Below, one piece after another: positions 2,307-48,286 of a stretch of 64,000 nucleotides of DNA; position 1 is the stretch's first letter, and each line of letters begins with the position of its first letter. Both the position numbers and the translations under genes were made by a program. This DNA comes from an uncultured bacterium (GTDB taxonomy: Bacteria > Krumholzibacteriota > Krumholzibacteriia > LZORAL124-64-63), in assembly GCA_937864225.1 (NCBI GenBank), contig CALMJK010000016.1:34030-98029 (forward strand). Reading direction: 5' to 3'. Below the pieces are notes generated by a model. The model saw nothing but the letters and a program-made list of their open reading frames with translations, ran no database searches and was not told where the DNA came from.

Positions 2307-3659
2307 TCAGAGCAGGCGGGCCGCCAGGCTCGCCAACTCGCTGCGCTCGCTCTTGGCCAGCGTGATGTGGCCGTAGATCGGCTCCTGCTTGAAGCGTTCG
2401 ACGACGTACGTGAGTCCGTTGCTGGCGGCGTCCAGATACGGGTTGTCGATCTGGTACGCGTCGCCCGTCAGGATCACCTTGGAACCGTGGCCGGCCCGGC
2501 TGATCACGGTCTTCACCTCGTGCGGCGTCAGGTTCTGCGCCTCGTCGATGATGATGAACAGTTTGGGCAGGCTCCTGCCGCGGATGTAGGTGACCGCCTC
2601 GACCTCGATGAGACCGGCGTCGAACAGGTACTGCACCTTGTCGCCGGATTTCTCCAGTTCCGGATCCACCAAGAACTGCAAGTTGTCGAAGATCGGTTCC
2701 ATCCAACTCTCGAGCTTCTCGTCCTTGGTCCCCGGCAGATAGCCGATGTCGCGCCCCAACGGCATGATCGGCCGCGAGACCATGATCTTGCGGTAGCTCT
2801 TCTCCTCGGCCACCTTGTGCAGGCCCACCGCGAGGGCCAGCAGCGTCTTGCCCGTTCCCGCCTGCCCGAGCATGCTCACGAGCTGGATATCTGGGCGCAT
2901 CAGCAGCTCGAGCGCGAAGCGCTGTTGCAGGTTGAGCGGCTGCAGTCCCCAGGGGCGCGCCGCCTCGTGCTGCAGCGGCTCCACGCGGCCCGACTCGCGC
3001 CGGTGCATGCCCAGGGCCGTGTGCTTCGGGTTGCCGGCCGCGCGCAGCAGCACGCCCTCGTTGGGCTGCAGATCGGCGGGGGCCGGCAGGGCCTCGCCGC
3101 GATAAAAGGCGTCGACCGCTTGGTCCGGCACTTCGAGTTCCCGCCATCCCGTGTACAGCTCGTCGAAGCTGACCGTGCCGCGCTGCAGATCCTCCGATTT
3201 GAGCCCCAGCGCGTCGCCCTTGACCCGCGCGTTGATGTCCTTCGTGACGAAAACGACCTCGACGCCCCGATCCCGTAGGAAAAGGCCGGCGGCCAGGATG
3301 CGGTTGTCCGGGATGCTGCCGTCCAAGCCGCGCGGGAGGTACTCGACGTACGTGTCGACCAGCACGAACAGCCGCCCGCCGTGCGGCAGGGGGACGCCCT
3401 CGCGCAGGGCGCCGTGCGTGCGCAACGCGTCGATCGCGCGGATGACGCGCCGGGCGTTGCGGCCGCGCTCGTCGTTCTCGCGCTTGAAGCGGTCCAACTC
3501 CTCGAGCACGTCGACGGTCAGGATGATGTCCCGGTCGTCGAAGGCGTCGAGGGCGCTGGCGTCGTGCAGAAGGACGTTCGTGTCGAGCAGGTAACAGCGA
3601 CCCGTGAGGTTGGCGAGGCAATTGCCATTGGACGGTTTAACGGCGGCGTTGTCGGCCAT
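2307..3659 (-). CDS. PhoH2: N-terminal PIN-domain RNase fused to PhoH-like P-loop ATPase
   Basis: The N-terminus is PIN-like (YLLDTNVLLHD…TVDVLEELD). The C-terminal half has a Walker A motif GQAGTGKT and a Walker B motif LFIIIDEAQNL with PhoH-like conservation. Confidence 0.85.
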   Translation of the reverse strand: MADNAAVKPSNGNCLANLTGRCYLLDTNVLLHDASALDAFDDRDIILTVDVLEELDRFKRENDERGRNARRVIRAIDALRTHGALREGVPLPHGGRLFVLVDTYVEYLPRGLDGSIPDNRILAAGLFLRDRGVEVVFVTKDINARVKGDALGLKSEDLQRGTVSFDELYTGWRELEVPDQAVDAFYRGEALPAPADLQPNEGVLLRAAGNPKHTALGMHRRESGRVEPLQHEAARPWGLQPLNLQQRFALELLMRPDIQLVSMLGQAGTGKTLLALAVGLHKVAEEKSYRKIMVSRPIMPLGRDIGYLPGTKDEKLESWMEPIFDNLQFLVDPELEKSGDKVQYLFDAGLIEVEAVTYIRGRSLPKLFIIIDEAQNLTPHEVKTVISRAGHGSKVILTGDAYQIDNPYLDAASNGLTYVVERFKQEPIYGHITLAKSERSELASLAARLL

Positions 3660-5315: not shown

Positions 5316-5753
5316 TTGCCCATGCCCGCCCTGGGTCTGATAGCGCTGGCCACCGGGCTGGTCGCCCAGGTGTTCAAGATGCTTCTGCTGTCGGCGCGCA
5401 CGCGACGCCTGGATCTCTCCGCGCTCGCCGCCACCGGCGGCATGCCCAGCTCACACACCGCAGCGGTCACCACGCTGGCACTGCTGGTGGGGGAACGGTC
5501 CGGGTGGGCCTCCTCCATGTTCAGCGTCGCCATCGTCTTCGGCCTGTACGTCGTGTTCGAAGCGACCGGGCTGCGACAGGAAGTCGGCAAACAGGCCCGC
5601 CTGCTCAACGACCTGGTCGAGCAGTACCGGCTCACGCACGCCCTGGACAGGTCGCGGCTGCGCGAGCTGACCGGGCACACCTGGGCCGAGGTGGCGGGAG
5701 GCTTCCTCTGCGGCGTCGGCGGCTGGCTGGTGGGCCGGGCGCTCCTCGCCTAG
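5316..5753 (+). CDS. Divergent PAP2-family membrane protein (DUF212/YuiD-like)
   Basis: This is a small membrane protein with a GGMPSSHTA motif typical of the DUF212 acid-phosphatase-related family. A good RBS (GGAAGGGG) lies upstream. Confidence 0.55.
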   Translation: MPMPALGLIALATGLVAQVFKMLLLSARTRRLDLSALAATGGMPSSHTAAVTTLALLVGERSGWASSMFSVAIVFGLYVVFEATGLRQEVGKQARLLNDLVEQYRLTHALDRSRLRELTGHTWAEVAGGFLCGVGGWLVGRALLA

Positions 5754-5777
5754 GCGCGGCGCCCGCCGCGATTCTGC

Positions 5778-5805
5778 TTGACAGTCTCCGGCCCCGTCTT
5801 AAATG
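5778..5805 (+). promoter_or_regulatory. Candidate sigma70-type promoter (TTGACA-16-TAAATG) upstream of the ParA-like gene
   Basis: The hexamers were read directly from the intergenic sequence. The -10 element matches the consensus only weakly. Confidence 0.3.
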
Positions 5806-5926
5806 CTGGCATTTGGCCTCGGTGGGGCGGAGGGAGCCGCCGCCGCCGGTGGCGGTGAAACGGAGGTGGTCGGCGGGTCCGCGCCCGCGGACGGCGGGCA
5901 AGCCGATCAGAAAGGACGGGGTCATG

Positions 5927-6997
5927 AGGATCATTGCCCTGGCCAACCAGAAGGGTGGATGCGGCAAGACCACGGTTGCCACGAACTTGGCGGCGGCGCT
6001 GGCGCAGCTCGGCAAGCGCGTCCTGCTCATCGATAACGACCCGCAGGGGCATGCCACGCTCGCGTTCGGTTTCGGCGAACGCGATTTCTCGCTGAGCACC
6101 TACGATCTCTATCTCACCACGGACATTTTGGTGGAGGACGCGTTCCTCGAGGTCGCGGGGGGCCTGCATCTGGTGCCCGCGGGCATCGAGTTGAGCGCCG
6201 TGGAGCAGGCGCTGGCCCGCGAACCGGAGAAGGAGCAACGCCTCCGGAAGACCTTGCGGCGGTCGGCGCTGCCTTACGACATCGTGCTGATCGATTGCCC
6301 GCCGAGCGTGGGCCTGCTCACGTTCAACGCGTTGCTGGCCTGCGGGGAGGTCGTCGTGCCGGTCGACGCCAGCACCCAGAGCCTGCAGGCCGTGCGCAAA
6401 TTCCGCGAAACGCTGGCGGTTCTGCGGGAGAAGCGGGGACACGACGTCCTGCCGCACGTCCTGTTGTCGAATTTCGACCCGCGTCCGCGGTTTGCGCGCG
6501 GATTGTCGGGAGAACTGGGAGAACAGCACGGCGACGTTCTGCTCGAGACGATCGTGCACCATACTGTCCGCCTGAAGGAGGCCGCCGCGGCAGGCGTGCC
6601 GGTGGCGCTCTTCGATCCGGGCTCGCGCGGCAGCCTCGATTTCCGCCTCCTGGCCGAAGAATTGGTGGCGAGACAGGTCACGCTGGGCGTGCCCGACCTG
6701 GACCGGTGGGCCGAACTGCTGCACGGTCCGCAGATCACGCCCGAGGGAGTCTGTTTCGCGGGCCGCTTCCCCCGCGCGGCCTCGGTGCGCGTGACCGGAT
6801 CCTTCAGCGGCTGGAGCGCGGAGGGCGTGCCGCTGCATCCGGGGCCCGACGGGCGCTGGGAGACCACGCTCCCGCTGTCGCCCGGCCGGCACGAGTATCG
6901 TTTCGTGGTCGATGGCCAGTGGCAGACGGACCCGGAGAACCCCGAGAGCATCGCCAACGAGTTTGGCGGGCGCAATTCGCTCGTCACGGTGCCCTGA
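5927..6997 (+). CDS. ParA/MinD-family ATPase fused to a C-terminal CBM48/AMPK-beta glycogen-binding domain
   Basis: The N-terminus has the deviant Walker A motif KGGCGKTT and the fold of Soj/ParA. The C-terminal 90 aa (RVTGSFSGWSAEGVPLHPGPDGRWETTLPLSPGRHEYRFVVDGQWQTDPENP) matches the AMPK1_CBM/CBM48 signature. A strong RBS precedes the ATG at 5927, and the listed ORF start at 5153 is an upstream artifact. Confidence 0.8.
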   Translation, partial: RIIALANQKGGCGKTTVATNLAAALAQLGKRVLLIDNDPQGHATLAFGFGERDFSLSTYDLYLTTDILVEDAFLEVAGGLHLVPAGIELSAVEQALAREPEKEQRLRKTLRRSALPYDIVLIDCPPSVGLLTFNALLACGEVVVPVDASTQSLQAVRKFRETLAVLREKRGHDVLPHVLLSNFDPRPRFARGLSGELGEQHGDVLLETIVHHTVRLKEAAAAGVPVALFDPGSRGSLDFRLLAEELVARQVTLGVPDLDRWAELLHGPQITPEGVCFAGRFPRAASVRVTGSFSGWSAEGVPLHPGPDGRWETTLPLSPGRHEYRFVVDGQWQTDPENPESIANEFGGRNSLVTVP

Positions 6998-7001
6998 CGC
7001 C

Positions 7002-7871
7002 GTGCCGGGCGCGACGGCCAGCAGTTCCCGCGGCCATCACATTCGCGCCGTGGTCGATCAGTTCCTGGCGGACGGGTGGACGGCTCCGCTTCCGCGGGCC
7101 ACGGCTTCGTGGTCAGGCGCTCGGCCATTCCGCTTCGCGGTGGCCGCGCCCGGCGCCGGCGCCGTCGCGGCTTGGGTCTGCGCGCGCCTGGCCCGCGCGA
7201 GCTTGCGGATCGGCGCGGGCGACGGCGGCGCGCCTCCCCGCGTGATGCTGGAGGAATGGCACCAGCAGCTCTGGTCCGCGGTGCCGTTTCTGGGCGGCAC
7301 GGATCACGATCATCTGCGACGGCTGTTCCGTCCGCTCGACCCTGGAGGCTCGACCGGTGTCGCCCGGCGCTGGGTGGGCGCGGTCGAAGTCGTGCCGCCG
7401 CAACCCACCGAGTCGCCGCCGAACGCGAGCGGGAGTTTCGGCATTTGTTGGCTGAACTTCGGCCGCCTCTCGCCCGAGGCGATCGAGGCCGTGGAGGCGC
7501 TGCCGGCGTGGGACGGAGGCGCCGCCAGGGCCGGAGGTGTCGATGGCCTGGTCTGGTGCCGCGGCGAAGAGGATGGCGGCGCCCTGCGTGACGCCTATTG
7601 GCTGGGCCGGTTGATCGCCGCCACGGGCGCCCGACAGGTGCGGCTGGTCCGCGTTTGCGCCACGGCGCGCCGTCCGGACACGGCGCTCGCCCGGGAGGCC
7701 TCGCTGGCCGCCAGCGTTGCGCCCGATCTGCAGGTGGAGGCGTTGCCGCTGCTCGTCGCGGACCTTGTCGCCGACACGGGCGCCGACGACCCGCTGGCGC
7801 GACTCGCCGCGGGCATGACCATGGCGGCGGCCGCCGCCCGGCGGCGGCCGGGGGAGGCGGCGCGGGCATGA
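7002..7871 (+). CDS. Hypothetical protein (GTG start, follows ParA-CBM48 gene)
   Basis: The reading frame is open with no recognisable domains. Its ATGA overlap with the next ORF supports a real coupled gene, but high-GC ORF calls are uncertain. Confidence 0.35.
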   Translation: MPGATASSSRGHHIRAVVDQFLADGWTAPLPRATASWSGARPFRFAVAAPGAGAVAAWVCARLARASLRIGAGDGGAPPRVMLEEWHQQLWSAVPFLGGTDHDHLRRLFRPLDPGGSTGVARRWVGAVEVVPPQPTESPPNASGSFGICWLNFGRLSPEAIEAVEALPAWDGGAARAGGVDGLVWCRGEEDGGALRDAYWLGRLIAATGARQVRLVRVCATARRPDTALAREASLAASVAPDLQVEALPLLVADLVADTGADDPLARLAAGMTMAAAAARRRPGEAARA

Positions 7872-8203
7872 CAAGTCCGGACCAATTCGTCCAAGTCGGA
7901 CTGATCGAGCCCGGTCCGTTGCGTGAGGACTTCCGCCGCTTTCTGGCGCTGGCCCGAGACCTCGGCCCCGAGGTGACGCTGCGGGAGGAACCGTTTGTCA
8001 TCGTGCTGGAACGCGATGGCGCGCCGCTGTTGCGCGCCCGGCTCGCAGCCCGTCAGGTGCAGATGCTGCTGGGAGCGCAAGGGAACGCGGTCGTGGAATG
8101 TCGCCACCACGAGGATTTCGTGGGCGTGCTGTCGTGGCTTCTGGAGGGCGAACGCCGCCGCATGGGCGCCGCGTTGGCCGACTCCGGAACCGCCTGGGCA
8201 TGA
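7868..8203 (+). CDS. Hypothetical small protein, translationally coupled on both sides
   Basis: The start ATG at 7868 overlaps the upstream stop (ATGA), and its own stop overlaps the WaaL-like start at 8200 (ATGA). Confidence 0.35.
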   Translation: MTSPDQFVQVGLIEPGPLREDFRRFLALARDLGPEVTLREEPFVIVLERDGAPLLRARLAARQVQMLLGAQGNAVVECRHHEDFVGVLSWLLEGERRRMGAALADSGTAWA

Positions 8204-9597
8204 ACCCGCCCGCCGGTGCCGCCGACGCGACGGGCGCACGGCCGCCTCGGCTGGCGGAAATCCTCTGGGGGGCAGCGCTCGTCAGCTTGGCTTGGGTCGG
8301 CGTCGATCCCGTGGCGCTGGCCACGGGGCGTGACCTGGGGGCGGGCTTCCAACCCTCCTATCTTCTCCTGGCGGGCGCCATCTGCGCCTGGATTCCCTTC
8401 GGGAGCCGCGGCGCGCGGGCGAAGGTGTGCCGGCTTGCGGCCTGGCAATGGTTCGCGCTGGTCGGCTTGGTGGTCGCCCTCGCCTCCGGCGCTGGTCTTT
8501 TCTTGGCGCCGCCGCCGGGTGTCGCGCTCTCGGCGCGCATGATGCGATTTGTCAAACAAATTGTCCAATTGATTGTCATGATATCTTTTATGTCATTTAC
8601 GATTTACTGGACGCGCGGCGCCGGGCGCTGGGCGCGGGTGCGCGATCTGTTCGGCGTGGGCTGCGCGATCCAGATCGCCTGGGGCCTGACCCAGGCGGTG
8701 ACCTTCGGGCACGCGCCGGGCTGGTTCGTGGCTGCCGAGCGGATCGCGACCTCCAACCCCAGCATCCTTTCCGGGTCCGGGGAACTCTTTCTGGGCGGCG
8801 TCTTCACGGGGATTCCCAGGGTGCGCGGCACCGTCTGCGAACCGCTCTATCTGGCCAACTACGCCTTGTTGGCCCTGCCCGTGCTGCTGTTGCCCGGCTC
8901 GCGGCGATGGCAGCGGGCGATCGCGTGCGGCGCGGGAGTGCTGCTGTTGCTGAGCTGGTCGCGGGGCGCTTGGCTGGCCGCGGTCGTGGGGGTGGGGGTA
9001 TGGGCCGCGCTGGCGGCGCGCGCCCGCTGCCTGCCCCGCCCGGGCCGGCGCTGGTGGGCGCTGGTGGTGGTCCTGGTCGTCATCGCCGTGACGGCGGCCG
9101 CGCTGCGTCCCGATCTCGCGTTGCTGCCGGGCCGGCGATTGCTGCAGGTCTTCAATCGCGCCGATTGGTCGAACCTGACGCGGTTCTACTCCATGCAGGC
9201 CGCCTGGCGCGCCTGGCTGCTCAGCCCGTGGCTGGGGGTGGGCTGGGGTCAGTTCGGGTTCCACTTCCCCGCGCTTGCGGACCCCCTTGGACTGCAAAGC
9301 CAGTTCTCGTGGCCGGTCGTCAACAATTTCCCGCTGGCGATCCTGTGCGAGACGGGTCTGCTCGGGTTCGGCGTGCTGGCCGCGGCGGGCGCCTGGCTGG
9401 CACGGGCCAGTTGGCGCGCCGTCCGCACAGGCGCCGGCAGCGCGGCCGCGGGACGCGTGGCGCTGCTGGCGGCAGGCACGGCGGCGGTCTGGTCGCAGTT
9501 GCTGACGTTCTCGCAGTACAACTTGCCTCACATCTGGGTGGCGCCGGGTCTGCTGCTGGCCGCCTTGGCCGAGGCGCGAGAGGACCGGCATGGCTGA
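8200..9597 (+). CDS. O-antigen ligase family membrane protein (WaaL/Wzy_C-like)
   Basis: It is a multi-TM protein with the SRGAWLA motif and a periplasmic loop typical of Wzy_C. An AT-rich codon island sits inside the gene at 8538-8610. Confidence 0.6.
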   Translation: MNPPAGAADATGARPPRLAEILWGAALVSLAWVGVDPVALATGRDLGAGFQPSYLLLAGAICAWIPFGSRGARAKVCRLAAWQWFALVGLVVALASGAGLFLAPPPGVALSARMMRFVKQIVQLIVMISFMSFTIYWTRGAGRWARVRDLFGVGCAIQIAWGLTQAVTFGHAPGWFVAAERIATSNPSILSGSGELFLGGVFTGIPRVRGTVCEPLYLANYALLALPVLLLPGSRRWQRAIACGAGVLLLLSWSRGAWLAAVVGVGVWAALAARARCLPRPGRRWWALVVVLVVIAVTAAALRPDLALLPGRRLLQVFNRADWSNLTRFYSMQAAWRAWLLSPWLGVGWGQFGFHFPALADPLGLQSQFSWPVVNNFPLAILCETGLLGFGVLAAAGAWLARASWRAVRTGAGSAAAGRVALLAAGTAAVWSQLLTFSQYNLPHIWVAPGLLLAALAEAREDRHG

Positions 9598-43406: not shown

Positions 43407-43780
43407 GTGAAAGGAGCGGCGAGCGGGAGGCGGCCGCGCGCGCCGATGTGGCGTCTCTCCTGGCGGAAGCGGGTGCCGCGCCGGCGGGCCTGGCGGCCGC
43501 AGACGACCGGCTGCTGGCCGAGGTGGCGTTGGCGGTGAAGCGAAGAGGGTTGGAGACCCCCGCCGTGCTGTGGTTGGAAAGCCTGCGCCCGCTCTCTTTC
43601 CTCGGCGCTCAAGCCATGCATTTCCTCACGCCCTTCGTGCAGGCCTTCATTCCCGCGGACCGTTTTCGTCGCTTGGCGTCCGTGCTGGAGGAGCGGGCGA
43701 ACCTGGAACGCCTCGTCCGCCTCGTCGAAGTCGCGGCAAGCTCCGCTCCGGCCGCGAAAGATCGCGGGGGTGGGGCTTGA
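43403..43780 (+). CDS. Hypothetical protein (GTG start overlapping upstream stop, GTGA)
   Basis: The reading frame is open and translationally coupled, with no recognisable domain. Confidence 0.35.
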   Translation: MSERSGEREAAARADVASLLAEAGAAPAGLAAADDRLLAEVALAVKRRGLETPAVLWLESLRPLSFLGAQAMHFLTPFVQAFIPADRFRRLASVLEERANLERLVRLVEVAASSAPAAKDRGGGA

Positions 43781-43845
43781 GCGCGCATCCCGCCGCAGAA
43801 AGGCCCGCCGGAGGTCCCGGACCACGGCCCTGCAACGTCATCCTG

Positions 43846-45630
43846 ATGACGGACTGCGGGTCAACGTCGACCAAGGCCATTCTCATCGAGCGGCGGGATG
43901 GGCAGTACCGTCTGGTCGCGCGAGGCGAGGCGCCCACGACGGTCGAGGCGCCCTGGGAGGATGTCACGCGGGGTGTTCGCAACGCCATCGCGGAGGTCGG
44001 GGAGGTGACCGGGCGCCGCCTGCTGGATCCGCATTCGGGCGGCCTGATCACGCCTTCGCGAGGAGACGAAGGTGTCGACCTGTTTTTGAGCACGAGCAGC
44101 GCGGGGGGCGGGCTGCAGATGCTCGTGGTCGGGGTCGTGCGGAACATGACGGCCGAAAGCGCGGAACGCGCCGCCCTCGGCGCGGGTGCGATCGTGACCG
44201 AGGTCATCGCGTTCAACGATCACCGACGCCCGCACGAGCAGATAGAGCGCATCCGGCACTTGCGTCCGGACATGATCCTGCTGAGCGGGGCGGTCGACGG
44301 CGGCAGCACCTCTCATGTCGTGAAGCTGGCGGAACTGGTGGCGGCGGCGGAGCCCAGGCCGCGGCTGGGCGGCGGCGGCCGGTTGCCGTTGATCTATGCC
44401 GGCAACGTGGCGGCGCGCGAGGAGGTGTCGTCGGCGCTGGGCGAATGCGTGGACCTGGTCCTGACGGAGAACCTGCGGCCGATCCTCGAACGGGAGAATC
44501 TCGGTCCGGCGCGCGCGAGAATCCACGAGGTCTTTCTGGAGCACGTCATGGCGCGCGCGCCCGGGTACGCGCAGTTGATGGATCTGTGCGACAGCCCCAT
44601 CGTCCCAACGCCGGCCGCCGTCGGAGACATGGTCAAGCGCATCGCCGCCGAAGAAGGGTGCGACGTGCTGGCCGTCGACATCGGCGGTGCGACCACGGAC
44701 ATCTTCTCGATGTTCGACGGACAGTTCAACCGGACCGTGAGCGCCAACCTCGGCATGAGCTACAGCGTGGCGAACGTGCTGCGCGCCGCGGGGTTGCCGG
44801 GTGTCATGCGATGGGTCCCGCTGCATCTGGAAGAGCGCGAGCTGCGCGATCGCCTCCTGAACAAGATGATTCGGCCCACGACGGTCCCGCAGCTGCTGGA
44901 GGAACTGGTTCTGGAGCAGGCGGTCGCGCGTGAAGCCTTGCGTCTGGCCTTCCAGCAGCACCGCGGTTTCGCGAGCGGGCTGAAGGGGGTGCACCGCGCA
45001 CACGGCATGGGGGACGCCTTCCACCAAGCCGGTCCGGACGCCACCCTGGCGGACATGATGCGGCTGGGTTTGATCATTGGGTCGGGCGGCGTGCTTTCGC
45101 ACGCGCCGCGGCGGGCTCAGGCCGCGCTGATGCTGATCGACGCCTTCCAGCCGGAAGGCGTGACGCGGCTGGCCGTCGATTCGGTCTTCATGCTGCCGCA
45201 ACTGGGCGTACTGGCGAATGTGCACGCCGAGGCGGCGCGGCAGGTGCTGCGAAACGACTGCCTCGTGCGCTTGGGGACCTGCGTGGCGCCGGTCGGGCCG
45301 GCCGTGCGCGCCGGCTGTGCCGTGGCGTCGGTTCAATTGACGGAGCGCGACGGCCCGAGGCGCGAGATTCGGCTCGGCGCGGGGGAACTCGTGCGCGTGC
45401 CGCTGGCGGCGGGCGCGCAGGCTCATCTGTGCGTGCGCCCGGCGCGCGGATTCGACGCGGGCGCGGGGCCGGGCGCCGTGCTGGAGACCGACGTCGACGG
45501 CGGTGAGGTGGGCGTGATTCTCGACGCGCGGGGCCGGCCGATCGCGCTGGCGGCGGACGAGCCGGGGCGGCTTGCCCAATTGCGCAGGTGGCACGCGGCG
45601 CTCGATCTCTACCCGGAGGCGATCGCGTGA
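43846..45630 (+). CDS. GlmL/MutL-EutA-like ASKHA-superfamily ATPase (duplicated actin-like fold)
   Basis: The N-terminus MTDCGSTSTKAILIE matches phosphate-1 of GlmL (IDFGSTYTK-type). LSTSSAGGGL is a phosphate-2-like motif. The second half carries LAVDIGGATTDIFS, the DIGGATTD hallmark of the GlmL/EutA and hydantoinase-A families. Confidence 0.55.
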   Translation: MTDCGSTSTKAILIERRDGQYRLVARGEAPTTVEAPWEDVTRGVRNAIAEVGEVTGRRLLDPHSGGLITPSRGDEGVDLFLSTSSAGGGLQMLVVGVVRNMTAESAERAALGAGAIVTEVIAFNDHRRPHEQIERIRHLRPDMILLSGAVDGGSTSHVVKLAELVAAAEPRPRLGGGGRLPLIYAGNVAAREEVSSALGECVDLVLTENLRPILERENLGPARARIHEVFLEHVMARAPGYAQLMDLCDSPIVPTPAAVGDMVKRIAAEEGCDVLAVDIGGATTDIFSMFDGQFNRTVSANLGMSYSVANVLRAAGLPGVMRWVPLHLEERELRDRLLNKMIRPTTVPQLLEELVLEQAVAREALRLAFQQHRGFASGLKGVHRAHGMGDAFHQAGPDATLADMMRLGLIIGSGGVLSHAPRRAQAALMLIDAFQPEGVTRLAVDSVFMLPQLGVLANVHAEAARQVLRNDCLVRLGTCVAPVGPAVRAGCAVASVQLTERDGPRREIRLGAGELVRVPLAAGAQAHLCVRPARGFDAGAGPGAVLETDVDGGEVGVILDARGRPIALAADEPGRLAQLRRWHAALDLYPEAIA

Positions 45631-46742
45631 GCCACGCCTATTATCCCGGGCTGTCGGTCAGCGGCTGGACGATGTTGCGCCGGGAGCGACTGTTGCCGGT
45701 TGCGGGCGAAGTCCTGGTCAACGTGGGCCAGGTGGTCGCGCCGGACACGCTGGTGGCGCAAACGGTCCTGCGCGGGCAACTCATCCCGGTGAACGTGGCC
45801 GCCAGCCTCGGAGTGTCTCCGGAAGAGGTGCCGGGTTCGCTGCTCAAGGAACTCGGAGATGCCGTGGAATCCGGCGAGATCCTGGCACGCACGAAGGGGT
45901 TGTTCGGCCTGCTCCGCAGCGAGTGCCGGGCCCCTGCCGGCGGTGTCATCGCCTCGATCTCCGCGGTGACGGGGCAGGTCATGCTCGAGGGGCCCGCGGT
46001 GCCGGTGCAGGTGCGGGCCTGGCTGTCGGGAACCGTGGCCGAGGTGCGCCCGGAGCGGGGAGCCGTCGTCGCGTCGGGCGGCGCTTGGTTGCAAGGCGTG
46101 TTCGGGCTGGGGGGCGAGACGTGGGGGGCGCTGGTTCTGGCGGTGTCGGCGCCCACGGACGTGCTGGAAGAGCCGGACATCACGCCGGCCATGCGCGGCA
46201 AGGTCGTCGTGGGAGGAGCGCTGGCGACGCTGGGCGCCCTGCGGCGCGCCGCCGAGGTGGGGGTCGCCGCGGTCGTCACCGGGGGTGTGCATGCGCTCGA
46301 CCTGGGCGCGTTCCTGGGTGAGGAGATCGGCGTGGCGGTGACCGGCGCGGAGGAGATCGGATTCACTCTTGTGGTGACCGAGGGCTTCGGCCAGGTCGCG
46401 ATGGCCAGGCGGACCTTTCGCCTGCTGGGCGAGAAGGAAGGTTTCATCGCGAGCGTGTGCGGCGCGACGCAGATCCGCGCGGGCGTGGTGCGTCCAGAGA
46501 TCATCGTGCCGACCGCCGCGAGCGAGCGGCTGGCGGCGGAGACGGCCGCTTCGGGCGGGATCGAGGTCGGGGCTCCGGTGCGGCTGATCCGGGCGCCCCA
46601 TTTCGGGGCGATCGGTCTGGTGCGGGAATTGATCGCTCAACCGCAGGTTCTCGAGAGCGGCGCGCGCGTGCGCGTGCTGGTGGCTGAGCTCGAGAACGGC
46701 CTGCGGGTGACGGTGCCCCGCAGCAACGTGGAAGTTTTCTGA
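45627..46742 (+). CDS. Hypothetical protein, Gly/Val/Ala-rich, possible barrel-sandwich/Rossmann-like regions
   Basis: GTG 45627 overlaps the upstream stop (GTGA). No confident family match was found. Confidence 0.4.
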   Translation: MSHAYYPGLSVSGWTMLRRERLLPVAGEVLVNVGQVVAPDTLVAQTVLRGQLIPVNVAASLGVSPEEVPGSLLKELGDAVESGEILARTKGLFGLLRSECRAPAGGVIASISAVTGQVMLEGPAVPVQVRAWLSGTVAEVRPERGAVVASGGAWLQGVFGLGGETWGALVLAVSAPTDVLEEPDITPAMRGKVVVGGALATLGALRRAAEVGVAAVVTGGVHALDLGAFLGEEIGVAVTGAEEIGFTLVVTEGFGQVAMARRTFRLLGEKEGFIASVCGATQIRAGVVRPEIIVPTAASERLAAETAASGGIEVGAPVRLIRAPHFGAIGLVRELIAQPQVLESGARVRVLVAELENGLRVTVPRSNVEVF

Positions 46743-46752
46743 CGGAGAAGAC

Positions 46753-47571
46753 GTGGCGGGCTGGTTCGAGCAAGCCAACTGGAACCTGGCGCTGTTCACG
46801 CTGATCCTGGGCGGCGTTCTGCTGGCGTCCATCCGGGCCGCGCTGCGCGGTCGCGTGCCCCGGGTGCGCGTTCTGCCGGGCGTCGCGGCGATGGCTGAAG
46901 CCGTCGGCCGCGCCGTGGAAATGGGGCGTCCCGTCTTTTTCGTGCCCGGCACGCGCGACCTGGACAACGTGCAGACGGTGGCGGGACTGGCAGTGCTAGG
47001 CGAGTTGGCCGCGCTCACGGCGCGTCTGGAGTGCCGCCTGGAGGTGCTCACGGACCGCAGCCTGGTCATGGCCGCGGCGCGCGAGGCGGGGCGCGCGGCC
47101 TACCTGGCCGCCGGGCGCCCGGAGACCTGGCGCGACGACAGTGTCAGCTACGTGTCGGACGACCAGTTCGGCTTTGTCGCGCGCGTGGACGGCCTGATCG
47201 CGCGCGAAAGGCCCGCCACCTGCTTCTGGTTGGGCGCTTTCTCGGCCGAGTCGCTGCTGCTGGCCGAAGCGGGCAGTCAGATCGGCGCCATCCAGATCGC
47301 GGGCACGGCCGAGCGCAGCCAACTGCCGTTCTTCATCGCCGCCTGCGACTACACGCTGATCGGAGAGGAGTTGTTCGCGGCGAGCGCCTGCCTGACGGGC
47401 GATCCGGCGCTGCTCGGTACCCTGCGGGGACAGGACCTCGGCAAGGCGGTGGCGGGCGGCGCTCTTCTGCTGGGATCGCTGCTGGCGACCGCCGCGGCGC
47501 TCACGCACTGGCCCTTCATCGTGAAGCTGCAGAGCGCCCTCCAACGCCTGTTCAGCGCGGGAGGTCCGTGA
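46753..47571 (+). CDS. Membrane-anchored protein (single N-terminal TM helix + soluble domain)
   Basis: The N-terminus WNLALFTLILGGVLLASI is a TM helix. The protein appears paralogous to the gene at 48283. Confidence 0.45.
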   Translation: MAGWFEQANWNLALFTLILGGVLLASIRAALRGRVPRVRVLPGVAAMAEAVGRAVEMGRPVFFVPGTRDLDNVQTVAGLAVLGELAALTARLECRLEVLTDRSLVMAAAREAGRAAYLAAGRPETWRDDSVSYVSDDQFGFVARVDGLIARERPATCFWLGAFSAESLLLAEAGSQIGAIQIAGTAERSQLPFFIAACDYTLIGEELFAASACLTGDPALLGTLRGQDLGKAVAGGALLLGSLLATAAALTHWPFIVKLQSALQRLFSAGGP

Positions 47572-47572
47572 C

Positions 47573-48286
47573 ATGCGCAGCCGGGCTCCGCAGTTGCTCG
47601 TCGCCGCCGTCGGGATTCTCCTCGTGCTGACGGCCTTCGTGCCGCGTCCGGCGCCGGGAGCGGGCAATGCCTGGCAGGGCTTCTTTGCCTACATCGACGA
47701 GAATTTCTCGGTCTGGTTCAACATCATGGCGGTGTTCGCCTTCGGGCTGGGCGCCGCCAGCTTGTTGGGGGTGCATGGAGGGCGCGTGCGGCGGCGAGGG
47801 CGCGATTGGCCCTATTCGCTGGCCACGTTGCTGGCTTTCGGCGTGACGCTGCTGGTCGGGCTCCTCAAGCTGGGCGGGCCGCCGGGGCTGACGGGCGACC
47901 CGGCCGACTCCGCGTCGATTCTCGGACGCATCTTCGCGGCGGTGGTCAGCCCCCTGCAGGCCAGCATGTTCGCCTTGCTCGCGTTCTTCGTCGCCTCGGC
48001 GTCCTATCGGGCCTTTCGCGTGCGCACGCGGGAGGCCTCGGCGCTGCTGGCCGCCGCCCTGGTCATCCTCATCGGACGCACGCCCTTCGGTTCCGCCCTC
48101 ACGCAGTGGTTGCCGGAGCCGCTGGCGTTCCTGCGCCTGGAACGGCTGTCGCTGTGGATCGTGCAGGTGCCCAACCTGGCGGGACAGCGAGCGATCATGA
48201 TCGGCATCGCGTTGGGCGTGGTGGCCATGTCCCTGCGCCTGATCCTCGGCCTAGAGCGGGGCGTGCTGGGGAAGGAAAGGCCGTGA
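47573..48286 (+). CDS. Integral membrane protein (about 6 TM helices)
   Basis: Hydrophobic segments recur throughout the protein. The start lies 1 nt after the upstream stop. Confidence 0.45.
   Translation: MRSRAPQLLVAAVGILLVLTAFVPRPAPGAGNAWQGFFAYIDENFSVWFNIMAVFAFGLGAASLLGVHGGRVRRRGRDWPYSLATLLAFGVTLLVGLLKLGGPPGLTGDPADSASILGRIFAAVVSPLQASMFALLAFFVASASYRAFRVRTREASALLAAALVILIGRTPFGSALTQWLPEPLAFLRLERLSLWIVQVPNLAGQRAIMIGIALGVVAMSLRLILGLERGVLGKERP

Follow-up and report, generated by a model that had tools for sequence, protein, structure and literature searches.

ATPases of the ParA/MinD family have been described with DNA, protein machines and protein-shelled organelles as their cargos. The ParABS systems pair a ParA/Soj ATPase with ParB, while BcsQ/TadZ are family members encoded in polysaccharide biosynthesis and export operons. 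The BY-kinases (Wzc, and CapB with its activator CapA) are ParA/MinD-like P-loop proteins of Wzy-dependent loci, and are activated by a peptide of their membrane partner. Carbon-storage granules are served by proteins of the PhaM/PhaF type, which tether PHB granules to the nucleoid and are non-enzymatic and histone-like, with neither an ATPase nor an activating partner. In McdA/McdB and the orphan ParA systems (ParC/ParP, PpfA, PomZ/PomXY), a fast-evolving, lineage-specific partner engages the ATPase via an N-terminal region and the cargo is not DNA (PMC11407121). This 2024 review of ParA/MinD cargos names no glycogen or other carbohydrate cargo (PMC11407121). Here we examined a Krumholzibacteriota locus in which a ParA-type ATPase carries a carbohydrate-binding module of its own. 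The window, meaning the whole stretch of DNA analysed, spans 64 kb, and all features described lie on its + strand.

The gene for this protein, ParA-CBM (5924..6997), encodes 357 aa that comprise a Soj/ParA-type ATPase (residues ~1-254), a flexible linker (~255-273) and an AMPK-beta/CBM48 module (~274-356). Its ATG was located at 5924-5926, behind a GAAAGGA Shine-Dalgarno sequence at 5910-5916, and its stop codon at 6995-6997; a public protein (P0001) is identical and of equal length (357 aa). The sequence-only reading had found the gene correctly and placed its start at 5927, which is the second codon. Its proposal of a ParA ATPase fused to a CBM48 domain was borne out by Pfam, and for the C-terminus also by phmmer against PDB sequences. 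The Pfam matches were AAA_31 (residues 1-170, E 7e-44, 150 bits vs cut-off 27), CbiA (E 1e-18, 67.5 bits vs 25.4), AMPK1_CBM (residues 286-356, E 2e-14, 54 bits vs 26.8) and CBM_48 (residues 274-333, E 4e-6, 27.4 bits vs 22.4).

By its sequence, ParA-CBM is a Soj-like deviant-Walker-A ATPase, and it satisfied both the motif and the HMM thresholds of the ParA/MinD class. The deviant Walker A motif NQKGGCGKTT (5945..5974, residues 8-17) carries the signature Lys10, the catalytic Lys15 and the family-typical Cys13. Among 43 family members reaching down to 33% identity, N8, K10, G11, G12, G14, K15 and T16 never vary, whereas C13 shows at least 90% conservation; D37 and D39 of Walker A' (LLIDNDPQG) and D124 of Walker B (IVLIDCPP) are likewise invariant in the 43 sequences. 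Among solved structures, the ATPase part came closest to a ParA family protein (8RAY, E 1.7e-41) and to Thermus Soj (1WCV, E 2.8e-38). Chromosomal ParA/Soj proteins as a group matched at E 1e-41 to 1e-37, compared with E 1e-22 for MinD and a much weaker E 4.6e-11 for McdA, and sequence identity between the domain and Soj/ParA proteins lies at 38-45%. It was also noted that R187, at least 90% conserved, aligns with the arginine of the Soj DxRT motif, which we take to be R189 of B. subtilis Soj, a residue of non-specific DNA binding. ParA-CBM may thus bind DNA, a prediction that turns on this one conserved arginine.

We compared the locus with the established systems that it most resembles. It shares with ParABS the deviant Walker A with its signature lysine, the DxDPQG Walker A', the R189-equivalent arginine and a partner gene directly downstream whose product opens with a ParB-like peptide (of the form LGRGL... 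in other phyla). Unlike ParABS, it combines a partner devoid of ParB HTH and CTPase domains with an ATPase that bears an extra CBM48, and the analysis brought no parS-like repeats to light. A chromosomal ParABS partition ATPase was rejected on the NCBIfam ParA_partition model (NF041546, 111.7 bits, below the cut-off of 180) and on the lack of an adjacent ParB; a Pfam scan of 47 window ORFs turned up no ParB at all. BcsQ was rejected as well (TIGR03371, 98 vs 157.85 bits; NF007460, 28 vs 399), the neighbours being Wzy_C, GT4 and WecA and not bcsA/B. A BY-kinase (Wzc/CapB/EpsG) was rejected on DNDPQG in place of DxDxR, a CBM C-terminus without a Tyr cluster and 43.9 vs 108 bits for TIGR01007. 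PADLOC matched no defence-system component to ParA-CBM or to the two ORFs behind it (ORF2 and ORF3); its models gave partial matches to the Walker A and N-terminal region of the ATPase (residues 5-39 and 12-100; E 1.4e-5 and 3e-3) and none to ORF2 or ORF3.

We found that the architecture is far from isolated. At 64-82% identity, over 120 homologue clusters agree closely in length (357 aa in most, as much as 395 in a few) and fully in their Pfam set, and dozens of 50%-identity clusters at 34-49% identity give a single unbroken match across residues 1-356. The ParA plus CBM arrangement persists to 33% identity in several candidate phyla. Because so many clusters share length and domains, a misassembly, which the sequence-only reading had allowed for, does not account for the fusion, and on these alignments the fusion is a genuine, widely conserved bacterial ATPase family. 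The same reading had implied a rare architecture, in place of which we find a large family of several phyla, abundant in uncultured ones (Krumholzibacteriota, Glassbacteria, Myxococcota and Leptospirillia MAGs). Database searching for the architecture returned many homologues, named only "AAA/ParA family" or "chromosome partitioning protein"; no function was assigned to the family in any source examined, and a literature search found no publication on it. The label "chromosome partitioning protein" is probably misleading, since ParB is absent and a CBM is present. Some members have long acidic linkers (682 aa in locus L091), which would be compatible with a flexible tether to a bulky particle.

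The C-terminal module (6743..6991) satisfied the CBM48/AMPK1_CBM class by HMM thresholds and by sugar-contact residues. When its C-terminal 105 aa were searched with phmmer against PDB sequences, the AMPK beta2 and beta1 CBMs came out on top (E 8e-9), followed by pullulanase, GlgB, SEX4 and LSF1; AMPK beta was also the top match for the C-terminal 85 aa. Residues W297, R327, W333 and G348 align with W100, K126, W133 and G147 of AMPK beta1, where mutations abolish or weaken glycogen binding (PMC6274970). The family keeps W297 throughout and W333 and G348 in at least 90% of its members, with R or K at position 327; the replacement of K126 by Arg in ParA-CBM is a conservative change. The module differs from that of AMPK in being joined to a bacterial P-loop ATPase and not to a kinase scaffold. 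As ParA-CBM lacks a signal peptide, it must meet its ligand in the cytoplasm. The likeliest ligand is glycogen, since alpha-glucan genes (glycogen synthase, GH57 and phosphorylase) stand beside the module in three other lineages; an earlier suggestion of a glucan such as glycogen, made from the C-terminal domain, thus agrees with both the conserved contact residues and the gene neighbourhoods.

These alpha-glucan neighbours occur in three independent lineages. In the first (L085), the module lies beside genes for glycogen synthase, a branching enzyme of family GH57 and phosphorylase, and beside one for a CBM48 protein that stands alone; a cytoplasmic GH57 gene adjoins it in the second (L096, L106 and L110), and a GT5 synthase in the third (L102). 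Among ~193 neighbouring ORFs at 30 loci we counted 4 GH57 and 3 GT5 ORFs, where the chance expectation is well below one if ~3 such genes per genome are assumed. Such neighbours were found in only 5 of the ~30 non-Krumholzibacteriota loci, and the 64-kb window contains no glycogen gene. One Krumholzibacteriota MAG has been reported to be rich in starch/glycogen hydrolases.

The ATPase gene is followed after 4 nt by ORF2 (7002..7871), which starts with GTG at 7002 and encodes 289 aa, in agreement with the public gene call (P0293). ORF2 and ORF3 have a third-position GC bias like that of the neighbouring genes (0.85 and 0.78). ORF2 is a fast-evolving protein, with orthologues at 18-52% identity in 13 Krumholzibacteriota loci, and has a conserved N-terminal peptide, RGHHIRAVVDQFL (7029..7067, residues 10-22), in which H13, I14 and F21 are invariant across the 13-sequence alignment. 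We defined a partner family by the motif [KR]..[LIH]xx[IV][SA]H[LH][FY]L encoded beside the ATPase gene; ORF2 satisfies it, its 13 orthologues and proteins of other phyla conserve it, and a six-frame translation of the whole window contains it only once, in ORF2. In distant lineages the peptide is KRLGRGLEDVSHLFLS, which resembles a ParB N-terminus, and the counterpart of the ORF2 peptide in other phyla reads K(R/P)LGRGLE(D/E)VSHLFLS. The LGRGL form occurs in loci L081, L093, L094 and L102, with the variants PRGL (L108) and LGKGI (L120), and canonical ParB proteins from the surveyed loci have GLGRGLxAL at the equivalent position. A partner gene with the ParB-like peptide stands beside the ATPase in at least 12 of 30 non-Krumholzibacteriota loci and in all readable Krumholzibacteriota loci. 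Because of this dedicated partner the system is not self-contained, contrary to what the sequence-only reading had supposed.

Behind the peptide, the partner bodies are interchangeable: some partners have a ParA-like domain that lacks the P-loop, others a nuclease-like domain or a membrane anchor. The nuclease-like third domain of other lineages is encoded as its own gene, or fused to the peptide, or to the peptide plus pseudo-ParA; it matched NucS weakly (E 1.4) and nuclease-like candidate defence proteins at E 1e-7. No such domain was found in the module of Krumholzibacteriota, this window included. A comparison of the other-phyla partner family with ParA gave a probability of 95% (E 3.9e-8, 221 columns), and one partner-family member exceeded the Pfam thresholds for the ParA/MinD fold. 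The profile of Krumholzibacteriota ORF2 proteins matched the other-phyla partner family in hhalign with a probability of 80% and E 1.4e-5 over only 79 columns, and its direct comparison with ParA gave no significant match; the AF2 model of ORF2 reached pLDDT 35. The body of ORF2 is possibly a P-loop-less ParA/MinD-like domain. ORF2 matched no Pfam or NCBIfam model, those of the ParB HTH or CTPase domain included, and it is probably an ATPase activator or adaptor. The observations on the partner family point to a modular design in which one candidate activating peptide has been moved between different anchor domains.

The interpretation that we favour, at somewhat under an even chance, is a two-component ParA system whose ATPase itself binds a cytoplasmic alpha-glucan and tethers or distributes glycogen particles. 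ATP-bound ParA-CBM dimers would sit on the nucleoid, through the R187 equivalent of the Soj DNA-binding arginine, and the two CBMs of a dimer would hold a glycogen particle. The N-terminal peptide of ORF2 would then trigger ATP hydrolysis and release, and the site of release would depend on which of the variable bodies the partner carries (pseudo-ParA, nuclease-like domain or membrane anchor). Through such cycles of binding and release, glycogen granules could be tethered, spread over the nucleoid, spaced and inherited at division. This spacing would resemble carboxysome positioning by McdAB, and the pairing of a ParA-type ATPase with a fast-evolving, lineage-specific partner is common to McdAB and other orphan ParA cargo systems; in those, however, the adaptor binds the cargo, whereas ParA-CBM bears the cargo-binding module on the ATPase itself and is predicted to carry a polysaccharide. 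The proposed outcome, a carbon-storage granule kept on the nucleoid and inherited by daughter cells, is also that of the PhaM/PhaF tethers, although the ParA-CBM system is not homologous to them and has an ATPase and a candidate activating partner.

In weighing glycogen tethering, we counted in its favour the domain calls, the motifs, the Soj-like solved relatives and R187, the CBM residues, the lack of a signal peptide, the alpha-glucan neighbours, the ParB-like peptide, the match of the partner body to ParA, the long acidic linkers and the hydrolase-rich MAG. Counted against it were the 5 of ~30 loci with alpha-glucan neighbours, the window without a glycogen gene, and CBM-less relatives with the same partner set (L113, L120 and L132). 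Since these relatives keep the partners, the core machine can do without glycogen binding. A further point against it is that a canonical Brownian ratchet has its activator on the cargo, and here the cargo-binding module is on the ATPase. Envelope-polysaccharide genes also recur near the module, in Krumholzibacteriota, the L096-L106 lineage and L089.

The last observation leads to the main alternative, an organiser of envelope-polysaccharide assembly of the BcsQ/TadZ kind, in which the ATPase would place a Wzy-dependent or other glycan export machine at a membrane site while the CBM holds a cytoplasmic glucan primer or intermediate. The module heads a tight, overlapping operon. A terminator-like GC hairpin (5755..5770; 6 GC pairs, then ATTCTGCTT) directly 3' of the DUF212 gene (stop codon 5753) appears to mark the 5' boundary of the transcription unit. 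It is followed by a promoter-like site (5778..5805) of inferred function, with TTGACA at 5778-5783 and a -10-like TTAAATG at 5799-5805; the TTGACA stands unchanged in all 8 Krumholzibacteriota upstream regions that were aligned, and a consensus scan missed the site because the spacer is only 15-16 nt. Behind ORF3 come a Wzy_C/O-antigen ligase-polymerase-like membrane protein (8200..9597; Pfam Wzy_C, E 1.2e-15), a GT4-family glycosyltransferase (9590..10762; Glycos_transf_1 and Glyco_transf_4), a WecA/MraY-type polyprenyl-phosphate sugar-phosphate transferase (10802..12142; Glycos_transf_4, E 5e-33), a SAM-methyltransferase-like gene that overlaps both its neighbours (12108..12779; Methyltransf_11, E 1.7e-7; start confirmed) and a last gene of 452 aa with a signal-peptide-like N-terminus and no Pfam match (12776..14134), all five of them syntenic in Krumholzibacteriota loci. 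The gene after this unit has a strong promoter-like site of its own at 14131-14159. The coupling of ORF2, ORF3 and the WaaL-like gene, as first read, was confirmed by ATGA overlaps at 7868-7871 (ORF2/ORF3) and 8200-8203 (ORF3/Wzy_C), and the Wzy_C and GT4 genes share 8 nt.

Wzy_C, GT4 and WecA were found downstream in 12 of 12 Krumholzibacteriota loci with a long enough flank, including a lineage at 50% identity that adds a Wzz-like gene; in L015 and L017 a Wzz-like gene stands directly after the module, a point of likeness to the BY-kinases. Further afield, the L096-L106 lineage has an Alginate_exp porin, Poly_export and Wzz/GNVR nearby, with a membrane-anchored partner in the L096 lineage, and Wzy_C-TPR or PMT_2 genes lie close by in L085, L086, L089 (Wzy_C-TPR), L097 and L098. 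The Pfam CBP_BcsQ model also matches ParA-CBM (E 8e-18). However, beyond Krumholzibacteriota the module mostly lies outside polysaccharide operons; the closest outside lineage keeps ParA-CBM, ORF2 and ORF3 and continues with PmbA/TldD, so the envelope-polysaccharide placement stressed in the sequence-only reading is conserved in one phylum only. Characterised CBM48 modules bind alpha-1,4/1,6 glucans, and the locus offers no established producer of these polymers. The NCBIfam BcsQ cut-off of 158 bits was not reached, BcsQ itself has no CBM, neither bcs genes (bcsA/B/E/R) nor a membrane-targeting helix are present, and the ATPase is nearer to Soj than to MinD. We therefore consider this organiser unlikely.

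Partition or regulation directed at DNA or the nucleoid appears quite improbable. The partner would be a ParB analogue and glycogen a signal, not a cargo: through the CBM the ATPase would sense glycogen or be sequestered by it, in the manner of the AMPK beta CBM, and segregation or division would thereby follow carbon status. One account documents the AMPK CBM as a glycogen sensor (PMC2642990), and the Soj-like ATPase with its R189-equivalent arginine, the ParB-like peptide, the nuclease-like domain of other lineages (separate or fused) and the CBM-less relatives with the same partners would all suit such a role. Against it stand the Krumholzibacteriota modules without the nuclease-like domain, the lack of a ParB HTH/CTPase domain and of evident centromere repeats, a ParA_partition score of 112 bits vs 180, and a chromosomal setting among housekeeping genes in place of a mobile element. 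A further reading, an orphan ParA of the ordinary kind whose cargo is an unrelated protein and whose C-terminal module is a mere Ig-like (E-set) protein-protein interaction domain, would suit the majority of neighbourhoods, in which glycogen genes are absent, and the use of CBM48/E-set folds in protein contacts (the AMPK CBM packs on the kinase domain), but is very unlikely given the sugar-stacking W297 and W333 and R/K327 and G348, conserved while the family diverged to 33-40% identity, the sugar-binding CBMs as best matches and the enrichment of alpha-glucan genes among the neighbours.

If ParA-CBM does tether glycogen, its place at the head of a Wzy-dependent envelope-polysaccharide operon means that it may couple carbon-store use to glycan export in Krumholzibacteriota. 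The boldest form of the proposal, which we hold only speculatively, would make this the first ATP-driven system for positioning a polysaccharide storage granule or securing its inheritance, with a motor that carries the cargo-binding module, a portable ParB-like activating peptide on interchangeable anchors (pseudo-ParA, nuclease-like DNA binder, membrane anchor) and, in Krumholzibacteriota, wiring into an envelope-polysaccharide operon such that glycogen mobilisation and glycan export are spatially coupled. The family offers a testable candidate for active glycogen organisation and suggests that in some bacteria the placement or inheritance of glycogen stores is an active process. It is accessible to experiment: the ATPase is small and soluble, its ligand-binding domain is obvious, and two tryptophans and a short partner peptide stand out as targets. 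The portable-peptide design could help to recognise the partners of other orphan ParA proteins.

ORF3 (7868..8203) encodes a small conserved protein of 111 aa, translationally coupled on both sides, for which the public gene call agrees (P0314). Both downstream ORFs had been proposed as adaptor or regulator; the proposal suits ORF2 with its ParB-like peptide and does not extend to ORF3, whose distribution is restricted to a narrow clade and whose fold could not be recognised. Pfam and NCBIfam gave no matches for it, and structure comparison of its AF2 model no significant one. Six homologues are 50-57% identical, and positional homologues occur in L010, L085 and L086. The AF2 model (pLDDT 68) has an alpha-beta4/5-alpha topology.

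The first gene of the unit was found on the forward strand, from an ATG at 5924 to a stop codon at 6995-6997, with a GAAAGGA ribosome-binding site 7 nt upstream of the start. The sequence-only reading had the gene right and its start, 5927, one codon late. The product of 357 aa (ParA-CBM) is identical to a public protein of equal length. Pfam placed AAA_31/CbiA over residues 1-227, CBM_48 over residues 274-333 and AMPK1_CBM over residues 286-356 (E 2e-14; 54 bits against a cut-off of 26.8). When the last 105 residues were compared with PDB entries by plain sequence search, the CBMs of AMPK beta2 and beta1 ranked highest (E 8e-9), followed by pullulanase, branching enzymes, SEX4, and LSF1, which bears out the C-terminal CBM48 module that had been proposed. 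The same length and Pfam set recurred in more than 120 clusters at 64-82% identity. Among 1.8 billion cluster representatives, dozens at 34-49% identity gave one continuous match across residues 1-356, and some longer proteins (400-700 aa) were also encountered in which a linker separates ATPase and CBM. Given the shared architecture of these clusters and the continuous matches, the fusion predicted from the sequence is real, and the misassembly that the sequence-only reading had allowed for was not what we found. Within species genomes, the full-length relatives came nearly all from Candidatus Krumholzibacteriota MAGs. It was also noted that a 682-aa form in a Leptospirillia MAG (locus L091, 8001-10049) carries about 400 aa of highly acidic repeats (EAADEEDE...) between the two domains.

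We then consider the ligand of the CBM module. In the alignment to AMPK beta1, W297 corresponds to W100, R327 to K126, W333 to W133, and G348 to G147. Glycogen binding by the AMPK beta1 CBM is abolished by W100G and K126Q and weakened by W133L and G147R (PMC6274970). Among the 43 family members compared, the most distant at 33% identity, W297 was invariant, W333 and G348 were at least 90% conserved, and position 327 was mostly R or K. With these glycogen-contact residues conserved and no signal peptide on the protein, the obvious predicted ligand is an alpha-glucan of the cytoplasm, i.e. glycogen.

The ATPase domain retains invariant residues in the Walker A (N8, K10, G11, G12, G14, K15, T16), Walker A' (D37/D39/Q41), and Walker B (D124) motifs. 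Its nearest solved structures were the ParA family protein 8RAY (E 1.7e-41), Thermus Soj (E 2.8e-38), and Helicobacter Soj, with MinD (E 8e-22) and McdA (E 5e-11) far more distant. R187, which is at least 90% conserved, aligned with the arginine of the Soj DxRT segment, a position that we take to be R189 of B. subtilis Soj, required for non-specific DNA binding; from this correspondence we infer, reasonably, that ParA-CBM binds the nucleoid. Partition ParA, BcsQ, MinD, and tyrosine autokinases are covered by curated NCBIfam models, and ParA-CBM fell short of all of them by wide margins; by profile score it is placed outside these named subfamilies.

Directly downstream are ORF2 (289 aa; GTG 7002 to 7871, forward strand) and ORF3 (111 aa; 7868-8203, forward strand), both with coding-type GC3 and matching public gene calls, and the Wzy_C gene, which starts at 8200 on the same strand and overlaps ORF3; the spacing and overlaps of the three were as first described. 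A direct search with ORF2 returned almost no homologues (2 matches). Every Krumholzibacteriota locus possesses a gene of 180-310 aa at this position, and these genes share the N-terminal motif R-x-HHI-x-A-[IV]-A-HHF-L. Translated in all six frames, the whole window contains this motif a single time. In loci from other phyla, ParA-CBM has beside it a gene that begins with a more telling form of the motif: KRLGRGLEEVSHLFLS in L081, KPLGRGLEDVSHLFLS in L093 and L094, HKRLGRGLEDITDIFIS in L102, and KRLGKGIEDISHLFLS in L120, with more variants in L083, L085, L086, L088, L090-L092, L100, L104, L107, and L111. In the examined loci, canonical ParB proteins whose genes follow an ordinary ParA gene begin with (K/R)xGLGRGLxALL, and we infer that the partner peptide is an ATPase-activating handle.

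Behind the peptide, the partner bodies were P-loop-less ParA/MinD-like domains, nuclease-like domains, or membrane anchors. The partner profile from other phyla matched the ParA domain over 221 columns (probability 95%, E 3.9e-8) with degenerate residues at the position of KGGCGKTT, and one member exceeded the Pfam thresholds for ParA and CbiA. The nuclease-like domain has a third gene to itself in L081, L091, and L120, is joined to the peptide with nothing in between in L093, L094, and L108, and follows the pseudo-ParA domain within one fusion protein in L111; its matches (2VLD, NucS, E 1.4; a PADLOC candidate, E 1e-7) make a NucS-type fold a weak lead only. The membrane-anchor partners of L096-L099, L105, L106, and L110 comprise the peptide, one transmembrane helix, and a beta-rich domain, and are encoded upstream of the ATPase gene, which they overlap. 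When built from Krumholzibacteriota only, the ORF2 profile matched the partner profile of other phyla (probability 80%, E 1.4e-5) across the peptide, first strand, degenerate loop, helix, and second strand, and by this profile match ORF2 is assigned to the partner family. Its body is probably a pseudo-ParA. The direct profile comparison of the ORF2 clade with ParA was not significant, and a first ORF2 alignment (A2) covered only 34 columns of ParA (probability 4.7%). The match of A2 to the partner family (E 4e-12) was discarded as circular, because two sequences were common to both alignments. The AF2 model of ORF2, made from two sequences only (pLDDT 35), was unfit for a fold search.

For ORF3, six close homologues were found, and positional counterparts exist in L010, L085, and L086. 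Its AF2 model is moderately confident (pLDDT 68) with an alpha-beta-alpha arrangement, and Foldseek against the PDB gave no significant match (best E 0.23, TM <0.4). A comparison with the nuclease-like third gene of other lineages showed the two to be unrelated (hhalign probability 0.2%). In most Krumholzibacteriota loci, the gap between ORF2 and Wzy_C holds the gene of a different small membrane protein (about 180-200 aa), which combines a signal peptide with a C-terminal transmembrane helix and a basic tail and had no Pfam match (L001 ~10140-10679; equivalents in L004-L006, L009-L010, L012-L014, and L016). The window lacks this protein and has ORF3 instead, and L010 has both. A gene of about 580 aa is inserted between partner and Wzy_C in the 50%-identity Krumholzibacteriota lineage (L015 9793-11562, L017 9748-11496), and by its sequence this gene appears to encode a coiled-coil Wzz/polysaccharide co-polymerase.

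ParA-CBM heads eight tightly packed genes at 5924-14134, in the order ParA-CBM, ORF2, ORF3, Wzy_C, GT4, WecA-like transferase, methyltransferase, and an exported protein without a family match. The unit is bounded upstream by a terminator-like hairpin (5755-5770) and a TTGACA box, which was invariant in eight related loci, and downstream by the promoter-like site of the next gene (14131-14159). All Krumholzibacteriota loci with enough flank kept the order DUF212, ParA-CBM, variable gap, Wzy_C, GT4, WecA, methyltransferase, and last gene, including the two 50%-identity loci with the added Wzz-like gene. Rfam returned nothing over 5500-8400. In most related loci (L001, L006, L009, L011, L012, L013, L016; ~7930-8000), the parA-CBM start is preceded, at a distance of about 75 nt, by the conserved box CTTTCGAC, and RNAalifold paired it with GTCGAAAG, which overlaps the ribosome-binding site. 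Judged by conservation, not covariation, this pairing may be a translational control hairpin; the box is absent from window 5754-5923 and from L010.

Outside Krumholzibacteriota, we surveyed 21 full-length metagenome loci along with 12 contexts obtained through protein look-ups. At 49% identity, the nearest outside lineage kept DUF212, ParA-CBM, and the ORF2-like and ORF3-like genes and then ran into PmbA/TldD, so the module is separable from the polysaccharide genes. Alpha-glucan genes adjoin the module in three unrelated lineages. In L085, ParA-CBM, partner, and ORF3-like gene are followed by a stand-alone CBM48 protein, glycogen synthase, GH57 branching enzyme, and phosphorylase; in L096, L106, and L110 the second gene upstream of the module encodes a cytoplasmic GH57; and in L102 a GT5 synthase stands immediately behind the partner gene. 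By Pfam, 4 GH57 and 3 GT5 genes were counted in ~193 neighbouring ORFs from 30 loci, where ~0.2 alpha-glucan genes are expected if a genome holds roughly three. The extra GH57/GT5 neighbours were detected only through Pfam counting and clustering, and tblastn with the L085 glycogen enzymes added no more loci. In the window, a Pfam scan of 47 ORFs detected neither a glycogen gene nor a ParB, and no ParA besides ParA-CBM. Envelope-type genes were also recorded near the module, namely Alginate_exp porin, Poly_export, and Wzz in the L096-L106 lineage, Wzy_C-TPR in L089, and PMT_2 in L085, L086, L097, and L098. A ParA with the same KGGCGKTT Walker A cysteine and no CBM was encountered in L113, L120 (9420-12416), and L132, followed by the same peptide-bearing pseudo-ParA partner and the nuclease-like third gene.

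Alongside the demonstrated domain identities, motif conservation, partner family, and recurrent alpha-glucan neighbours, we tentatively favor, at a little short of an even chance, a two-component ParA system. The ATPase would bind glycogen through its own CBM and also bind DNA, the partner peptide would drive its cycle, and glycogen particles would be tethered and distributed on the nucleoid. Counting against this glycogen-positioning reading, the cargo module sits on the motor and not on the activator, relatives without a CBM exist, and the Krumholzibacteriota operon link to Wzy-dependent polysaccharide is left unaccounted for. That shared operon keeps alive a second, unlikely explanation, in which the ATPase organizes a glycan assembly machine. 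It is more doubtful still that glycogen acts as a signal for a DNA-directed system. Least likely, the CBM module would be a mere protein-binding Ig domain, against which the conserved sugar-stacking tryptophans argue. Returning to glycogen positioning, ParA-CBM would work like known ParA-plus-partner systems and thus form no new category. In the sources, the family carries no label more specific than "AAA family ATPase", "ParA family protein", or "chromosome partitioning protein", and the known family with an assigned function that the sequence-only reading had considered did not appear. Nothing relevant on ParA together with glycogen, CBM48, or AMPK1_CBM came up in the literature searched, and neither full-text searches nor a 2024 review (PMC11407121) gave a ParA with carbohydrate cargo, the association of BcsQ with cellulose secretion aside.

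Several additional features were noted among the related loci. In one lineage, the gene just downstream of ParA-CBM encodes a protein whose N-terminus is rich in lysine and resembles histone H1 and whose C-terminal domain is conserved (L096 10780-11181, L099 3012-3419, L105 4288-5001, L106 11464-11979); it had no Pfam match and may be nucleoid-associated. A Ppx/GppA (polyphosphate/ppGpp phosphatase) gene adjoins the module in two unrelated loci (L088 6861-7817, L108 3885-5408), a further possible connection with storage polymers or starvation. L120 and L091 each have a MerR regulator upstream. In L081 (1-7740), phage-like genes for terminase, portal, and major capsid protein were found 2-8 kb upstream of the module, which may be coincidence.

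Across its 64 kb, the window is an ordinary chromosomal stretch that carries glnA, lon, lexA, efp, accBC, ftsK, and polA. The gene that follows the eight-gene unit (14131-19224, forward strand) encodes a secreted-type protein of 1653 aa in which a C25 (gingipain-like) peptidase domain is combined with FG-GAP repeats and, at the C-terminus, a FlgD-Ig domain, and before it lies the strongest promoter-like site of the scanned region 5600-14400 (TTGACC-17-TATAAT with TG). Four genes at 43570-48283 (forward strand) encode PF13941 'MutL' (E 1e-124), a 384-aa protein, DUF6754 (E 4e-97), and a 237-aa protein, and look like an uncharacterised operon. At 2307-3659 (reverse strand), a PIN domain is fused to a PhoH-like ATPase, and this fusion is also found beside glnA in L010 at 80% identity.
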